Positions 11,573 to 36,302 of a stretch of DNA of 52,683 nucleotides are shown piece after piece. The notes under the pieces were generated by a model. That model worked only from the letters and a program-made list of their open reading frames with translations, was not told the origin of the DNA and did no database searches. The position numbers and the translations under genes were made by a program. The stretch is from a virus (Duplodnaviria; Caudoviricetes), in the IMG/VR virus record IMGVR_UViG_3300033153_001326, positions 1-52,683 of that record; one strand, 5' to 3'. Positions within the stretch are counted from its first letter, which is position 1; every line of letters begins with the position of its first letter.

Positions 11573-11822
11573 ATTTAAATACAAGCTATCTGGTTTCGAA
11601 CAGATGTGGACTGAGATTGAGCGTCTTGAGGAGCGAGAAGAATTACTTATTCGCACACTACAAACATTGGCGCAAGATGATTTACCTCTGCCTCGCTCAG
11701 AATACATACAAGCTGCACTGACTAACTTGCAGAAGATTCCAGGCAAGTCGGCTGGATACAAAATGATCGAGAACATGGGAATAGATTTTTACGAGAAGGC
11801 AAAGTGCCAGTTTAGCGATTGA
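11553..11822 (+). CDS. Hypothetical protein
   Basis: GAGG RBS; 89-aa ORF. Confidence 0.7.
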   Translation: MSSEKRKFKYKLSGFEQMWTEIERLEEREELLIRTLQTLAQDDLPLPRSEYIQAALTNLQKIPGKSAGYKMIENMGIDFYEKAKCQFSD

Positions 11823-22836: not shown

Positions 22837-23231
22837 AACGAAGAAAGACACAACAAACATTAAGAGCAGAGAGTCGTGGGCTACGGAAAGTACAAAACGA
22901 GCAAAATGTGTGGACGTTCATTCAAGGCGATGATGTTCTGCATCAGTGGGGAACATTCTCGGGCAGTACAACATTTGCTGTTAATGATGCACTTTCAGTT
23001 GGTGACATCATTACTATCAATGCATCTGATACAACATCATGTGCATTTGGTCTTGACTTGGCATACAAGAATATTAACCCAAAGCGCGTACATCCTGCTA
23101 GAAGAAGAAAAGTTATACAAGATCAAAAAGACATGATGGACGATCAAATGGTAGTTGTATCTGGTGGTACCTCATTAACTTGTACAAAGATAGACAATGT
23201 AACGTGGGTAGTCAACGGAGTCGTATCTTAA
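22833..23231 (+). CDS. Hypothetical protein
   Basis: Coupled to both gp46 and purF. Confidence 0.7.
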   Translation: MKRRKTQQTLRAESRGLRKVQNEQNVWTFIQGDDVLHQWGTFSGSTTFAVNDALSVGDIITINASDTTSCAFGLDLAYKNINPKRVHPARRRKVIQDQKDMMDDQMVVVSGGTSLTCTKIDNVTWVVNGVVS

Positions 23232-24685
23232 TGTGTGGAGTCGTTGGAATCTTTGGAAGGCAACCAGTGAATCAAGCACTATATGATTCATTGACTATGT
23301 TGCAACACAGAGGACAAGACGCCGCTGGTATTGTTACGTGCGATAGTAGTGGACTTCACACAAGAAAGGGTACGGGGCTAGTACGTGACGTATTCCATAC
23401 AAGACACATGAGACGGTTAAAAGGCAACGTTGGCATAGGCCATGTACGTTACCCAACAGCAGGCGCGAAGACACCCAAAGAAACGCAACCTCTGTACGTC
23501 AATAGTCCGTATGGAATATGTCTAGCCCACAATGGTAATCTCGTCAACTATGATGAGTTAGCTGAGATGCTTTCAAGCACAGACTTGAGACATTTGAATA
23601 CACATTCAGACAGCGAAGTACTACTAAACGTATTCGCACATGAATTACAGAAAGGCAATCACAATGAAATGATGGCAGAGCGTATATTCACAGCTATTAC
23701 TGAGCTACATAAACGTGTGAGTGGTGGCTACGCAGTTGTCTCGTTGATTGCAAATAACGGAATCGTAGCGTTTCGTGATCCACATGGCATTCGTCCATTG
23801 GTTCTTGGGCGCAGAGAAACTACACATGGGCTAGAATATATAATAGCCAGTGAAAGTGTGGCACTTGATGTGCTAGACTTTGAGCGAGTGCGCGACGTAG
23901 AGCCTGGTGAATGCATATACATAGACAACAAAGGTAGACTGCATTCAAAGATGTGCGCGAAGAAGACACAGCTATCGCCATGCATATTCGAGTATGTCTA
24001 CCTAGCTAGACCAGACTCCATCATTGATGGACTATCAGTGTACAAGTCTCGTCTACGCATTGGTGAACAGTTAGGTGAGAAGATTCTAGAAGAATGGCCT
24101 GACCATGATATAGATGTAGTAATTCCTATTCCCGATACGAGTCGTGTGTCTGCTGTGCAAGTAGCACACAGACTTGGACTAAAGTTGCGCGATGGGTTTG
24201 TAAAGAATAGATATGTTCCTCGCACGTTTATTATGCCTGGTCAAGAACTCCGAGAGAAGTCTGTGAAGCAAAAGCTAAACACGATTGATCTAGAGTTCGC
24301 TGGTAAAAATGTGTTACTCGTTGACGATAGTATCGTGCGAGGAACTACTTCACGCGAAATCATAAAAATAGCTAGACAAGCGGGCGCAAATATGGTATAC
24401 TTTGCAGTAGCAGCACCACCAGTTAGATACCAAAATGTATATGGTATCAACATACCATCATCAGATGAGCTAATCGCACATGATTGCACAGAAGAGGAAG
24501 TAGAAGAATTAATTGGTGCAGACAAGTTGATCTATCTTGACTTGCCTTCACTGATACAAGCAGTACAATACGAAGGCGTAAGCATAAACAAGTTTGATAC
24601 GTCATGCTTCTCTGGTGAATATGTCACTGGTGATGTAACAGAAGAATACTTAAAACAACTCGCAGACAAGAGAGAGGAAAAATGA
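23231..24685 (+). CDS. purF: Amidophosphoribosyltransferase
   Basis: Start re-called to ATG 23231, giving the catalytic N-terminal Cys (MCGVVG); LQHRGQDAAG, GHVRYPTAG, HNGNL and PRPP loop VLLVDDSIVRGTTS; E. coli type with no propeptide. Confidence 0.97.
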   Translation: MCGVVGIFGRQPVNQALYDSLTMLQHRGQDAAGIVTCDSSGLHTRKGTGLVRDVFHTRHMRRLKGNVGIGHVRYPTAGAKTPKETQPLYVNSPYGICLAHNGNLVNYDELAEMLSSTDLRHLNTHSDSEVLLNVFAHELQKGNHNEMMAERIFTAITELHKRVSGGYAVVSLIANNGIVAFRDPHGIRPLVLGRRETTHGLEYIIASESVALDVLDFERVRDVEPGECIYIDNKGRLHSKMCAKKTQLSPCIFEYVYLARPDSIIDGLSVYKSRLRIGEQLGEKILEEWPDHDIDVVIPIPDTSRVSAVQVAHRLGLKLRDGFVKNRYVPRTFIMPGQELREKSVKQKLNTIDLEFAGKNVLLVDDSIVRGTTSREIIKIARQAGANMVYFAVAAPPVRYQNVYGINIPSSDELIAHDCTEEEVEELIGADKLIYLDLPSLIQAVQYEGVSINKFDTSCFSGEYVTGDVTEEYLKQLADKREEK

Positions 24686-25707
24686 AAGTAACGAAATTGA
24701 GATACCTTTGGCTAGATGCTAATGGACACATACGAAACAAACTGAAGATCGTCAAGGGCGGGTTCGTACATGCACTTAGCGATATAGAACAGTGGAGCTA
24801 TGATGGTTCATCAACTGGACAAGCAGTGACAGGTGATTCAGATTTGTTCCTCAATCCAGTAAAAACATACCGTTCAACGAACCACGATGAAACTCTTGTG
24901 CTGTGTTCTGTCACAGACTTTGGTGACAACCCCGTGAAATCAGAAAAGCGATACCAACTTGCAGAACTAGCAGACAAGTACGAAACTAACGGATGGCTGT
25001 TTGGTATAGAACAGGAATATGCGTTGATGGATGATACTGGTACTAGATTATATCGTTGGCCTGATGCAGCATTCCCTGGTGAGCAAGGCCCATACTATTG
25101 TGGTGTTGGTTATGATGAGGCGTATGGTGCAGATATTATAGATGAACACACTGACACTTGTATAGATTATGGTCTTGCTATTTGTGGAACTAATGCAGAA
25201 GTGATGCCGTCACAATGGGAATTCCAGATTGGTGCAGAAGACCCGTTGACTGTTGCTGATGATCTTATAGTTGCGCGCTATTTATTGTATCGTGTTGCTG
25301 CACACTATGCTGCAACTGCAACACTACACCCTAAGCCAGTTAAAGGCAACTGGAATGGTAGTGGTGCGCACACTAACTTCTCAACAGCAGCAATGATGAA
25401 TGAAAAAACTGGTGCAAGAGCAATTGAACTCGCAGTTGTTAATCTAGAAAAGACACATGATGCATGTATCGAGCTATATGGCGAAGACATTCATCACAGA
25501 ATGACAGGTGAACTTGAAACTTCTGACATTAGTACGTTCACATATGGTGACAGCGACAGAGCCTGCAGTATTCGTAAGCCAATTGGTGTGCGTAGAGATG
25601 GTTATGGCTATCTAGAAGATCGCCGCCCATGCGCAAACATCAACCCATACACTGTATGTGCAGCAATCATACAAAGTGTCGAAGAAGGAGTTTGCACAGT
25701 AAAATAA
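24682..25707 (+). CDS. glnII: Glutamine synthetase, type II
   Basis: WSYDGSSTGQA, FGIEQEY, QGPYYCGVG, NAEVMPSQWEFQIG, WNGSGAHTNFST, GYLEDRRP; 341 aa. Confidence 0.95.
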   Translation: MKVTKLRYLWLDANGHIRNKLKIVKGGFVHALSDIEQWSYDGSSTGQAVTGDSDLFLNPVKTYRSTNHDETLVLCSVTDFGDNPVKSEKRYQLAELADKYETNGWLFGIEQEYALMDDTGTRLYRWPDAAFPGEQGPYYCGVGYDEAYGADIIDEHTDTCIDYGLAICGTNAEVMPSQWEFQIGAEDPLTVADDLIVARYLLYRVAAHYAATATLHPKPVKGNWNGSGAHTNFSTAAMMNEKTGARAIELAVVNLEKTHDACIELYGEDIHHRMTGELETSDISTFTYGDSDRACSIRKPIGVRRDGYGYLEDRRPCANINPYTVCAAIIQSVEEGVCTVK

Positions 25708-26009
25708 TGGATGAAAAAGCACAATTCTTACTAAAGTTGAAGGGCAAGAGAGATGGTGGACACTTGCACCATTGGTCTGAGGTTGATGGTGAGATAGTGG
25801 GCTTGCATAGTGAAACAGATACTTACACGATGGTAGCTAGGTCGTTGCGCTATGAAATAATTGATGACTACATTGTTGGGACAACAGACTATTATACATT
25901 AGGAAAGAAATGTCCACACAGCGATCTAGTAGAAATATTACAGAGGAAAGCACCAAGAGAGAAATTGCTCTTGGCATATAGATACGAAAAGGATACAGAT
26001 GGGAGTTAA
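25707..26009 (+). CDS. Hypothetical protein with N-terminal FLLKLKG motif
   Basis: TAATG coupling at 25707. Confidence 0.7.
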   Translation: MDEKAQFLLKLKGKRDGGHLHHWSEVDGEIVGLHSETDTYTMVARSLRYEIIDDYIVGTTDYYTLGKKCPHSDLVEILQRKAPREKLLLAYRYEKDTDGS

Positions 26010-26511
26010 TGGAAAACAGAAAGGCAACACATTTGAGAGAGACATAGCTAATATGTTCTCTGATCGTTTTGCTGAACACACAGGAATTGAGAAGTCTTTC
26101 CGCAGAAATCCTGATTCTGGGAGTTTCTTCGGTGGGACTAACATTGATCGTAAAGAGATATACGATACAGATTGGGCAATCTATGGAGACTTGATATGTC
26201 CGAGAGACTTTGGATTCACTATTGAATGCAAACATTATAAGACACCACCTACGCTGAATGCTATTCTCAAAGGAGAAGTAACAGAGTGGGACAAGTGGAT
26301 TGAACAAGCAAGACAAGATGCAAAAGCATGTGAGAAAGAAATGCTTATCATCATAAAATATAACAGAACTAAAATACTAACCATTACGGAAGAAGACACA
26401 ATAAAATCAGCATTTCCTATTATAAACTATAAAAAATTAGAGATACACACCCTGGAAGATGTACTACAAGAGAGTAATCCTTTTTTCTTTCCTGTAGTTC
26501 AACAAACTTGA
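25999..26511 (+). CDS. Holliday junction resolvase-like PD-(D/E)xK nuclease
   Basis: KQKGNTFER...GDL...IECK...W.QA pattern. Confidence 0.8.
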   Translation: MGVNGKQKGNTFERDIANMFSDRFAEHTGIEKSFRRNPDSGSFFGGTNIDRKEIYDTDWAIYGDLICPRDFGFTIECKHYKTPPTLNAILKGEVTEWDKWIEQARQDAKACEKEMLIIIKYNRTKILTITEEDTIKSAFPIINYKKLEIHTLEDVLQESNPFFFPVVQQT

Positions 26512-26544
26512 TATATATACATAGAACACTAAAATAAAACACAT

Positions 26545-26880
26545 TACGGTAACACACAGAACCCTTCATTATGGCACACAACTAGCCTCGATGGGACACA
26601 CCTTCCTTGAACGTGCAATGGAATACTTGCGCGTAGATACTGGAATGCTAGACATATAAACAAAGATGATGCTCTGAGAAAAAGTCAACATCAGCTTGTA
26701 TAACATCCTCATGTAGTGGTGTTATATGGGTCGCGGTATTGTGGTAAAACACACGGAGAGATTAATTGGTCAATGGTACCCGCCAAGCGAATAAGCTTTT
26801 TACTATGTGATGTGGTGACGACATAAGCAAACCACTAGCTCTGCTGAACTAGCGGAGCTATGGCTGATACAATAGCAAAT
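26545..26880 (+). ncRNA. Candidate large structured non-coding RNA (unclassified)
   Basis: ORF-free region with a run of helices containing G-U pairs on the + strand (e.g. 26694-26707/26718-26731 and 26836-26845/26851-26860); possible TTGATA-16-TAAAAT promoter at 26508-26535. Confidence 0.55.
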
Positions 26881-26904
26881 TAAAAATGAAACAAACAAAA
26901 AGAT

Positions 26905-26996
26905 TGAACTTTATCCGAAGCTGAAAAGAACTTTACGAAGCGAAGCGAGAGTAAAGTTGTTGAAAGCTTTGATGGTCGTAAGACCATCATGCTTTG
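26905..26996. repeat. Hairpin cluster with GCGAAGC loop (possible priming/origin or terminator element)
   Basis: AACTTTAC/GTAAAGTT stem (26929-26958) enclosing GAAGCGAAGCGAGA; TGATGGTC-GTAA-GACCATCA (26970-26989). Confidence 0.6.
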
Positions 26997-27015: not shown

Positions 27016-27321
27016 ATGAGAGAGTTACAATGGGGATTAACAATTGGTACTAGGAATCTTACTGCACTTGCTGTAGTAGATGACATATATACCAGATTTA
27101 CAGTATTTAAGAAAGATAAGCATTATCGTGTATCCGAGCTTGATGTTGATACTGGTGAATTGAATTACTATGATTATGACTTTGATAGTGAATCAGATGC
27201 AATAGCCTCTGTTGAGAAAGAATATCTATTACGATGTGAGGATCTGAATAAAGATCATTATACTGGTAATGACTACGGGGTTCACGCCTATACTGGACAG
27301 AAGGAGTGGTGGGATACTTAA
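27016..27321 (+). CDS. Hypothetical protein
   Basis: GGAG RBS; 101 aa. Confidence 0.72.
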   Translation: MRELQWGLTIGTRNLTALAVVDDIYTRFTVFKKDKHYRVSELDVDTGELNYYDYDFDSESDAIASVEKEYLLRCEDLNKDHYTGNDYGVHAYTGQKEWWDT

Positions 27322-35433: not shown

Positions 35434-35463
35434 GCAAAAACAGGAAAATACTTTTGCTAAGGA

Positions 35464-35516
35464 TATCAACGGGTTACGAAAATTCCGTTGACAAACACCG
35501 CCATATATGTTATTAT
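35464..35516 (+). promoter_or_regulatory. Sigma70 promoter for the HNH gene
   Basis: TTGACA (35488-35493), 17 nt, TATTAT (35511-35516); IHF-like TATCAACGGGTTA at 35464-35476. Confidence 0.75.
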
Positions 35517-35522
35517 GTTAAT

Positions 35523-36302
35523 ATGGATTACCATGCACACTACGACAAGCTTATCGCCCGTTCACGCGGGCGTTTGCTTGAGTGTTATACTGAAAAGCAC
35601 CATATCATTCCACGGTGCATGGGCGGTGGTGATGAACAGAAAAATCTCGCTGTTCTAACAGCAGAAGAACACTACGTAGCACACCAGTTGCTCGTCAAGA
35701 TGCACCCAGGAAACAAATCTTTAGTTTACGCAACAGTAATGATGGGTAGCGCAAGACCAAATAGTAATAACAAGATTTATGGGTGGGTGCGTAGAAAGTT
35801 TGCAGAGACTCAACGAGGTAAAATAGTATCAGAAGAAACTAGAGCCAAAATGAGAGCAGCACACTTGGGTAAATCTAAGCACACCCCAGAATCTCGTAAA
35901 AAGATAGCAGAAGCACGAACTGGTGTACCTTGGACTGCTGCACAACGAGCCGCACGACCAGTATTTGAGTATACAGTTGATGATAAAACTTGGAATTCAA
36001 TTACTGAATGTGCAACGCATTATGGTGTTTCTGAGCCTACCATCTATGGTTGGCGTTTGAAAGGCTATACTAAATCTCGACTGCAACGAGATTTCACTGT
36101 AACGTATGATGGTGTTGAGTATCCAAGTACTGCTGCCGCAGCAAGAGCGCATGGCATATCCAAACAAGGCATGGCTAAACGGTTAGTAAGACTGAAATCT
36201 GGTAAGAAGCCAGGCAACACGCCGTGGAATTCTGGCACAAGTGTACAAGTGGGCAAGAAGAAAAGAAACACAAGGGCTAGATCAGTAAACTCTGCTAAAT
36301 AG
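35523..36302 (+). mobile_element. Free-standing HNH homing endonuclease with NUMOD3 and HTH DNA-binding modules
   Basis: EKHHIIPRCMGG...NLAVLTAEEHYVAHQLL; SEETRAKM and HTPESRKKI repeats; C-terminal SITECA and STAAAARAHG HTH motifs. Confidence 0.9.

Follow-up and report, generated by a model that had tools for sequence, protein, structure and literature searches.

To our knowledge, large RNAs with pseudoknots and an intricate fold have so far nearly always proved to be ribozymes, riboswitches, or the cores of ribonucleoproteins (RNPs), and the phage-borne GOLLD and ROOL RNAs are still unexplained. GOLLD and ROOL are reported to be large ornate RNAs of phages and prophages (10.1101/2024.12.08.627333). 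Methylobacterium-1 (Rfam family RF01712) has been an orphan motif since 2010; Table 1 of Weinberg et al. 2010 (PMC2864571) rates it a likely RNA with neither a cis-regulatory nor a switch role. Here, we analyzed a 52,683-nucleotide (nt) stretch of viral DNA, positions 1 to 52,683 of IMG/VR record IMGVR_UViG_3300033153_001326 (henceforth the window), in which positions 26576-26883 of the plus strand are, on balance, probably a stand-alone gene for a highly structured noncoding RNA of ~310 nt that acts in trans. The predicted RNA family is spread over uncultured phages of several kinds and over genomic islands of some Betaproteobacteria, and RF01712 appears, from sequence comparison, to be a fragment from the middle of this much larger RNA.

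The RNA lies in a gap between genes. Mechanical translation of 26512-26879 yields no open reading frame (ORF) of at least 60 amino acids (aa), and the next plausible ORF starts at 27016. The initial annotation, made from the sequence alone, had called this the longest ORF-free gap in the window, which holds at an ORF cut-off of 40 aa; at 50, 60, or 80 aa the gap ranks second. Its main proposal, a large structured RNA on the plus strand, is borne out by strong covariation in many relatives, and all of the sequence words that it listed are present where it had placed them. One of these relatives, L010, carries a 79%-identical glutamine-synthetase-like gene and a syntenic gap after its nuclease gene, in which conserved blocks and compensating changes are visible, the conservation beginning near window position 26576.

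Using the longest invariant block as a search pattern (19 specified bases of a loop and its stem, H1, described below), we found 26 matching stretches in viral contigs, at least 119 in metagenomes, and 10 in genomes. Six of the 10 genome stretches are homologs, all betaproteobacterial (Oxalobacteraceae MsE-6, a Burkholderiaceae metagenome-assembled genome, Methylophilales LSUCC0135, and Polynucleobacter), while the other four are bare chance matches within other sequence. Removal of near-duplicates from the 136 matches with full flanks left 77 loci, which form several clusters with a mutual identity of 33-57%. The window clusters with L109, L123, and L163, and its next relatives are L055 (on the same contig as L010) and L045. 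A scan with a second pattern, GGTCAATGGTRCCCGCC, returned seven stretches, namely, the new and near-identical L199 and L202, L045, and four chance matches in GC-rich coding sequence. The family is abundant in aquatic and sediment metagenomes and spans T4-like myoviruses, contigs with lambda-like tail-fiber genes, and contigs in which the RNA precedes terminase genes. A blastn search with three family members gave no match in 50,697 GenBank phage records, and no copy was found in two complete jumbo-phage records of ~490 kb. Among the relatives of neighboring genes (L001 to L034 and Agrobacterium phage Atu_ph07), all but L010 are without the RNA; the closest contig, L007, whose purF-like protein is 94% identical, stops short of the gap.

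The fold was first drawn by eye from the comparison of lineages and then tested in three ways. A covariance model, R1 (304 positions and 56 pairs), was built from the same five phage sequences (group C) that make up a plain MAFFT alignment, A3. R1 bounds the RNA gene in the window at 26576..26883 (+), ~308 nt, with a score of 281.6 bits over model positions 1-304; these limits are predicted by the model, and the 5' and 3' ends are thus provisional. All of the features that follow are on the plus strand. The RNA opens with a conserved single-stranded tail, ACACAAC (26576..26582), which is kept in group C and, as ACACAACAA, in betaproteobacterial copies. It is followed by a three-way 5' domain (26582..26651), defined by comparison, with the outer helix CTAGC 26582-86/GCTAG 26647-51. 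Nested in this are TTCC 26603-06/GGAA 26642-45 and then the hairpin ACGTGCAA 26611-18/TTGCGCGT 26627-34, the junction strands being TTGA and AGATACT. Relatives show compensatory changes in this domain (e.g., TCCC/GGGA and CGTC/GACG), helices 1-4 are 80-95% paired in the R1 alignment, and the two inner helices were found unaided by RNAalifold.

The center of the RNA holds three main elements, the first two directly abutting. Stem H1 (26667..26693; TGATG 26667-71/CATCA 26689-93), which is 98.8% paired with three of five pairs changing on both sides, closes a 17-nt loop, CTCTGAGAAAAAGTCAA. Across the family, this conserved loop measures 16-17 nt and reads CUCUGAGAAAAAG(U)CAA. L199 and L202, which were found by the other pattern, keep CTCTG..GAAAAAG..CAA but carry inserts between these blocks (CUCUG-UUA-GAAAAAG-AUA-CAA), which leaves three sub-blocks as the only fixed parts of the loop. 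A by-eye search for a loop partner among GGAG-type words inside H3 found none kept across all lineages. The long hairpin H2 (26694..26731; 26694-707/26718-31) has 14 base pairs, five of them G-U, and all 12 modeled pairs change on both sides. Helix H3 (26733..26783; GCGGTA 26733-38/TACCCGC 26777-83, with C26780 bulged), 91.5% paired and with 6/6 pairs changing on both sides, encloses a small hairpin, H4 (26740-43/26750-53), and a GGAGAG stretch. An H-type pseudoknot (26766..26786) pairs TTGG 26766-69 with CCAA 26783-86, the latter directly 3' of H3; it is supported by a conservation test, by the MAFFT alignment, and by RNAalifold.

As for the 3' domain, it contains a 10-bp terminal hairpin, HT (26836..26860; TAGCTCTGCT 26836-45/AGCGGAGCTA 26851-60, loop GAACT), which is 93% paired with 9/10 pairs changing on both sides in the R1 alignment and 100% paired in the MAFFT alignment. 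HT is flanked by twin words (ACAUAAGCAAA and ACAAUAGCAAA, 48 nt apart), placed as ACATAAGCAAA at 26821..26831 and ACAATAGCAAA at 26869..26879, with a shared core AGCAAA. RNAalifold also proposed pairing a 5' CUAGCC with a GGCU after the terminal hairpin, which we rejected because it shows no covariation and is mismatched in two of five sequences. Five of the eight helices in the initial annotation thus stand outright: CTAGC/GCTAG, TGATG/CATCA, the 14-bp stem, GCGGTA/TACCCGC (now with C26780 bulged), and TAGCTCTGCT/AGCGGAGCTA. Its AAGC/GCTT helix is weak, with 64.9% of cells paired for the two pairs kept in the model, its GTGGT/ACCAC helix stays a candidate, and its TTCCTTG/CAATGGAA, which had joined TTCC to the loop of the ACGTGCAA/TTGCGCGT hairpin, fails and is replaced by the two nested helices of the 5' domain. 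The pseudoknot and H4 were absent from that drawing.

The evidence for a structured RNA is comparative; the folding energy of the sequence itself is unremarkable. Its minimum free energy is -87.0 kcal/mol versus -80.1 +/- 4.9 for shuffled sequences (z -1.41; 7 of 100 shuffles fold as well), with z +1.01 for the minus strand, and the single-sequence fold is not beyond chance. The initial annotation had counted a shuffle-like folding energy, together with a lack of conservation or covariation, against an RNA; the energy is indeed shuffle-like, yet conservation and covariation were both found. On A3, RNAalifold recovered He, Hc, H1, H2, H4, and HT unaided, choosing the pseudoknot helix instead of H3. 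With the structure, including the pseudoknot, scored on the MAFFT alignment, which was not fitted to it, 90.2% of cells are paired, compared with 79.8% in shuffled alignments (0/500 reach the observed value) and 31-46% when partners are slid; compensatory changes on both sides occur in 26 of 59 pairs. R1, run on the 77 loci, gave full-length alignments for 45, the bare-core chance loci scoring 15-22 bits in local matches only. Of the 2172 cells of this R1 alignment, 89.9% are paired (60.0% in shuffles, none of 500 reaching the observed value; 35-44% when slid), 53/56 pairs change on both sides, and the covariation score is 0.252 versus 0.025-0.033; pair counts in this alignment are inflated because it was fitted to the model structure, a bias that the RNAalifold and MAFFT tests do not share. 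R1 is also specific, with no match in 31 of 32 other phage loci (337 kb), the sole match being the known homolog L010. In the family alignment (584 columns), G-U/U-G cells outnumber A-C/C-A cells by 181 to 53, which agrees with the earlier remark that the G-U pairs favor the plus strand, the strand on which the alignment was fitted.

The pseudoknot was examined separately in a test that needs no alignment. At least four contiguous pairs can form in 40 of 41 distinct sequences, and the partner lies 6-9 nt before the 3' strand of H3 in 36 of the 41. The mean helix length is 4.95, versus a mean of 4.34 and a maximum of 4.68 in 200 partner shuffles, and the helix sequences are diverse (UUGG/CCAA, CAGG/CCUG, CGGG/CCCG, AAGGA/UCCUU, and GGGGAC/GUUCCU). 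On the MAFFT alignment, the pseudoknot is 100% paired. Strain variation among near-identical contigs from four metagenome DNA runs, over an 801-nt stretch that holds 40 further differences beyond those listed, points the same way. Of the 11 listed substitutions inside the RNA, six fall in loops and five in helices, and pairing is kept in all five of the latter. Four of these are in H2 (26706, 26707, 26719, and 26724), where the pair 26706-26719 is seen as U-G, C-G, and U-A among contigs; a 26778 A>G variant in H3 still pairs, as U-G. Judged from these comparisons, 26576-26883 is a conserved, structured RNA on the plus strand.

How does this RNA relate to those already catalogued? We scanned Rfam 15 at gathering score with the window, 18 phage-type loci, 10 genome loci, and 20 metagenome loci, and at permissive E values with the window region and two locus sets. 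RF01712 is the only family matched at gathering score, and this only in a minority of betaproteobacterial copies. The window itself has no match at gathering score, so the covariance-model check proposed in the initial annotation returned no known family there. With E up to 10, region 26400-27100 matches only PK-repZ (15.8 bits), and neither this region nor the whole window record matches RF01712; with E up to 5, nine loci give only mir-374 noise. The RF01712 gathering score is reached by not one of 28 distinct phage-type loci and records (tested lists of 18, 8, and 4, with two shared). This score is exceeded in 3 of 25 distinct betaproteobacterial-type loci (L068, L072, and L124), or 2/20 among the metagenome loci, and RF01712 was found in 1 of 120 genomes of the family to which the Polynucleobacter genome belongs. 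The link between the two rests on L068, a Polynucleobacter locus. RF01712 matches L068:1906-2014 at 49.9 bits (gathering score 40), and all 304 positions of the phage-only R1 align to L068:1861-2161, with a score of 46.6 bits. Since R1, which contains no bacterial sequence, and RF01712 match the same place, the phage RNAs and RF01712 are homologous. The locus from the OM43 clade (L066), a copy of the RNA on the chromosome, reaches 31.1 bits against RF01712.

The 103 positions of the RF01712 model begin with AAAG and a first hairpin; a linker then leads to H1 and H2, and the ACCG-type tail equals the 5' strand of H3. The two RNAs thus share AAAG, a short stem with a long hairpin directly next to it, and a CCG-type strand, and the counterpart in the window is H1 (26667-93), H2 (26694-731), and the start of H3 (26733-38), H1 and H2 being backed by covariation. 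However, the model ends inside H3 and covers neither the three-way 5' domain nor the pseudoknot nor any of the 3' domain. Conversely, its first hairpin, which is present in betaproteobacterial copies, is absent from the phage RNAs, the window AAAG (26662-65) running directly into H1. The ~310-base architecture with 5' three-way domain, pseudoknot, and 3' domain is absent from Rfam. The earlier description of the RNA as undescribed therefore stands insofar as neither the window nor any of the 28 phage-type loci and records has an Rfam match, and must be amended for H1, H2, and the beginning of H3, which are homologous to RF01712. In the literature, we found Methylobacterium-1 treated only in the table of Weinberg et al. 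2010, no function for RF01712, and no description or function of a ~310-base phage RNA.

Other described RNAs are more distant. Like GOLLD and ROOL, the RNA is large, intricately folded, stand-alone, and carried by phages and integrated elements, with no assigned function; it differs in having no Rfam match to them, in being smaller (~310-430 nt), and in not being tied to transfer RNA (tRNA) genes, ARAGORN finding three tRNAs in 60 family loci and none in the window. A two-piece transfer-messenger RNA (tmRNA) is described for marine T4-like myophages (OM43 phage Melnitz; PMC9004378), and there, too, a pseudoknotted RNA gene is carried by T4-like phages of streamlined aquatic bacteria. We rejected a tmRNA because ARAGORN finds none in the window or in the 60 loci and Rfam has no tmRNA match on the element, and we found no tRNA-like domain and no conserved tag frame in the RNA. 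RNase P RNA, group I and II introns, GOLLD, ROOL, OLE, HEARO, and raiA were likewise rejected, with no gathering-score match in the window and 18 family loci. These results agree with the initial annotation, which had recognized no tRNA, tmRNA, RNase P, or intron. Finally, a 2023 survey of IMG/VR lists 8495 unnamed DNAVirus_X candidates of 29-151 nt, with a mean of 67 (PMC10690425). These come from the same data source and from the same kind of evidence and are too short for a ~310-nt fold; pieces of the RNA may be among them.

The genomic contexts of the RNA are varied. In T4-like contigs, it follows gp46 and a small nuclease gene; in a second lineage, the large terminase gene follows it after two small ORFs; and in a third, it stands between J-like tail-fiber and ParB-like genes. 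In the OM43 genome, a tRNA-Asp gene ends 260 nt before it, and a collagen-repeat/CBM gene is its neighbor. A Polynucleobacter genome (G001, contig C27) holds two near-identical inverted copies 44 kb apart, at 65861-66161 (+) and 110203-110470 (-) (L190 and L193). One of them is directly 3' of an integrase gene, at an island edge adjoining pntB, and the other follows the intrinsic terminator of the preceding gene. Integrase, resolvase, carbonic anhydrase, chaperonin, and HNH/HIT genes lie in between, and this 44-kb stretch is a mixed island rather than a recognizable prophage, as judged from 10 of its ORFs; PADLOC, run on 10 neighboring proteins, gave only weak HNH/HIT matches near one copy. 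Flanking protein clusters, including the downstream ORFs, differ between lineages. No iterons, tandem repeats, or multi-copy direct repeats were found, and GC skew tracks gene orientation, its maximum near 27.2 kb coinciding with an orientation switch. Together, the varied contexts, the lack of iterons, and the orientation-following skew favor an independent, horizontally mobile RNA gene over a leader, an origin, or a packaging site.

We infer that the gene would be transcribed as a discrete RNA, which would act in trans as a folded molecule, and that mobile elements carry it as an accessory gene. Its scaffold, fixed by the pseudoknot, would present the conserved loop and both twin 3' words at set positions to a partner. 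A protein or a second molecule of the same RNA is the most likely candidate for this partner, and the RNA could accordingly be part of an RNP, a decoy, or self-assembling, listed here in no order of preference. It would neither regulate the next gene nor act at the DNA level. On a bolder and more speculative reading, it might assemble into multimers, as ROOL and GOLLD do, the conserved-loop word CUCUGAG being able to pair with itself. If Methylophilales LSUCC0135, a member of the OM43 clade, is in culture, as would be expected of the LSUCC collection, the question becomes experimentally tractable.

Several points weigh against the trans-acting reading. No RNA run was found to contain the stretch, and the transcript ends, the transcribed strand, and expression itself are all predictions from sequence. 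The single-sequence fold and the inflated pair counts of the R1 alignment have been described above, and the constancy of the loop is partly an artifact, since the loop word served to find the family. No protein family was found to co-occur with the RNA across contexts. The possible promoter of the initial annotation, sigma-70-like hexamers TTGATA-16-TAAAAT at 26508..26535 (+), is present with 10 of 12 matches, but the region holds five such sites versus 3.4 +/- 1.8 in shuffled sequence. Moreover, the site is not conserved, a closely related contig having three changes inside the -10 hexamer, and the promoter is thus not established. Lastly, an ORF on the same strand starts 68-235 nt 3' of the RNA in 21 of the 31 phage-type loci, the window among them, and a leader role is conceivable in some lineages.

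The last point is also the first argument for a different explanation, that the RNA is a cis-regulatory leader (a riboswitch or a protein-binding 5' untranslated region) for the downstream ORF, which in the window is 27016-27321. Several lineages have AGGAG, followed by AUG, as the 3' strand of their terminal hairpin, which resembles a sequestered ribosome site, and a complex pseudoknotted fold is typical of aptamers. Nevertheless, we consider a leader unlikely as a general explanation. Downstream ORFs belong to unrelated clusters, and the next gene is convergent in 9 of the 31 phage-type loci (there is no next ORF in one), and in all five of the closest relatives of the window. The betaproteobacterial terminal hairpin is without a following AUG, and the ORF of the window lies 135 nt away from the RNA, with two further hairpins in between. 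In addition, the RNA described here and Methylobacterium-1 are both orphan RNAs judged not to be cis-regulatory, Methylobacterium-1 being so marked in Table 1 of PMC2864571.

That the RNA is a ribozyme, cleaving itself or acting on another RNA, seems to us distinctly improbable. Known ribozyme classes do offer parallels for its size, for its conserved unpaired nucleotides held by a pseudoknot, and for its presence on mobile elements. However, none of the Rfam searches described above matched a ribozyme, whether at gathering score, with E up to 10 for the window region, or with E up to 5 for nine loci. We recognized no conserved cleavage-site signature, and catalysis is not required by any of the data.

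Returning to the trans-acting RNA, the twin words of its 3' domain could point to its partner, as they appear to evolve in concert. In 12 relatives, words of 7-11 nt (e.g., ACAUCAAGUA, CGCAGAUAUU, and AGGAUUGAG) recur at the same two places with a spacing of 48-55 nt, versus 0.00-0.78 recurrences per locus expected by chance, and they vary between lineages while agreeing within each RNA. The simplest guess is a dimeric or duplicated partner. These same features, recurrence beyond chance and lineage-specific words that nevertheless match within each RNA, would suit a programmable RNA, and there is a very slim chance that the 3' domain is a programmable module, its identical words of 6-11 nt serving as paired recognition segments, and the family a new class of sequence-addressed RNA of phages and genomic islands. 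About as slim is the chance that the words are guides for a nucleic-acid target or the ends of a repeatedly copied template. A Pfam search of 30 ORFs of the window revealed neither a reverse transcriptase nor a guide-dependent nuclease, word spacing is not a multiple of three, and no complementary word is present elsewhere in the loci, except one in L137; a by-eye search for a word complementary to the twin words found none kept in all lineages. In L054, moreover, each twin word forms the loop and 3' strand of a small hairpin, which suggests that the 3' domain may consist of two homologous hairpins around a central one, and these may explain the repeat.

A role of 26576-26883 as a DNA-level element, whether an origin with an R-loop primer RNA (a suggestion of the initial annotation), a packaging site, or the target or cargo of a homing-type nuclease gene, is hardly credible, because, although 13 of the 27 viral-contig sources (the window and 26 loci) have a small nuclease gene directly before the RNA and one lineage has the element just before terminase genes, the compensatory changes include many G-U pairs that form on one strand only, the pseudoknot is conserved, the region has neither iterons nor a skew of its own, and the contexts are too varied for a single origin or packaging site.

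In these 13 viral-contig sources, the nuclease gene ends just before the RNA and is SegE-like GIY-YIG in 10 and PDDEXK_15 in three. The SegE-like gene (PF19835) is found at 3455-3892 of L044 and at nine other loci, PDDEXK_15 occupying the same slot in the lineage of the window. Free-standing homing endonucleases may use the RNA gene as a target or landing site. The upstream neighbor in the window is the PDDEXK_15/RusA-like nuclease gene at 25999..26511 (+) (PF24608, 86.6 bits; phrog_244), which lies outside the RNA. An imperfect 34-nt direct repeat (74% identity) has one copy within the end of this gene (26368-26401) and the other just 5' of the RNA (26528-26561), where it holds the putative -10 hexamer.

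On the 3' side, two hairpins (26918-36/26951-69 and 26971-88, +) lie ahead of the ORF at 27016, the former detected as inverted repeat I1 and both by reading of the sequence. Stretch 26918-26988 is rich in GAAGCGAA-type words, and similar words occur 3' of the RNA in L045 and L055. These hairpins may represent the transcript end, as terminators, or phage-specific regulatory hairpins. The 101-aa ORF downstream has no relative that we could find among viral contigs. At L045, a second match to the 5' domain of R1 (25 bits) is found at 11746-11822, ~170 nt upstream of the main RNA, which has an atypical 5' domain of its own; an insertion may have split the RNA, or the domain may be duplicated.

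The window, for which the IMG/VR virus record gives a CheckV completeness of 14%, is a fragment of a T4-like myovirus. It encodes a gp20 portal, a gp23 capsid protein, a gp21-type protease, gp15, and baseplate hub proteins, along with gp47/gp46-like SbcD/SbcC and purF-like and glutamine-synthetase-like proteins. At 23180-25707, the purF-like amidophosphoribosyltransferase gene adjoins the glutamine-synthetase-like gene, the pair is also found in L010 and L007, and both are possible auxiliary metabolic genes. The product of the purF-like gene is 61.5% identical to that of purF of an Acinetobacter-labeled record. The records CAKLQF020000002.1 and CAKLQH020000004.1, labeled Acinetobacter phage MD-2021a, resemble bacterial chromosome, with annotated genes that include pyrD, gpsA, type II secretion genes, and rpsU, and their label is misleading for host inference. 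Finally, the window has, at 35454-36302 between the portal gene and the head genes, an ORF that carries a NUMOD3 motif, which is also found in homing endonucleases.

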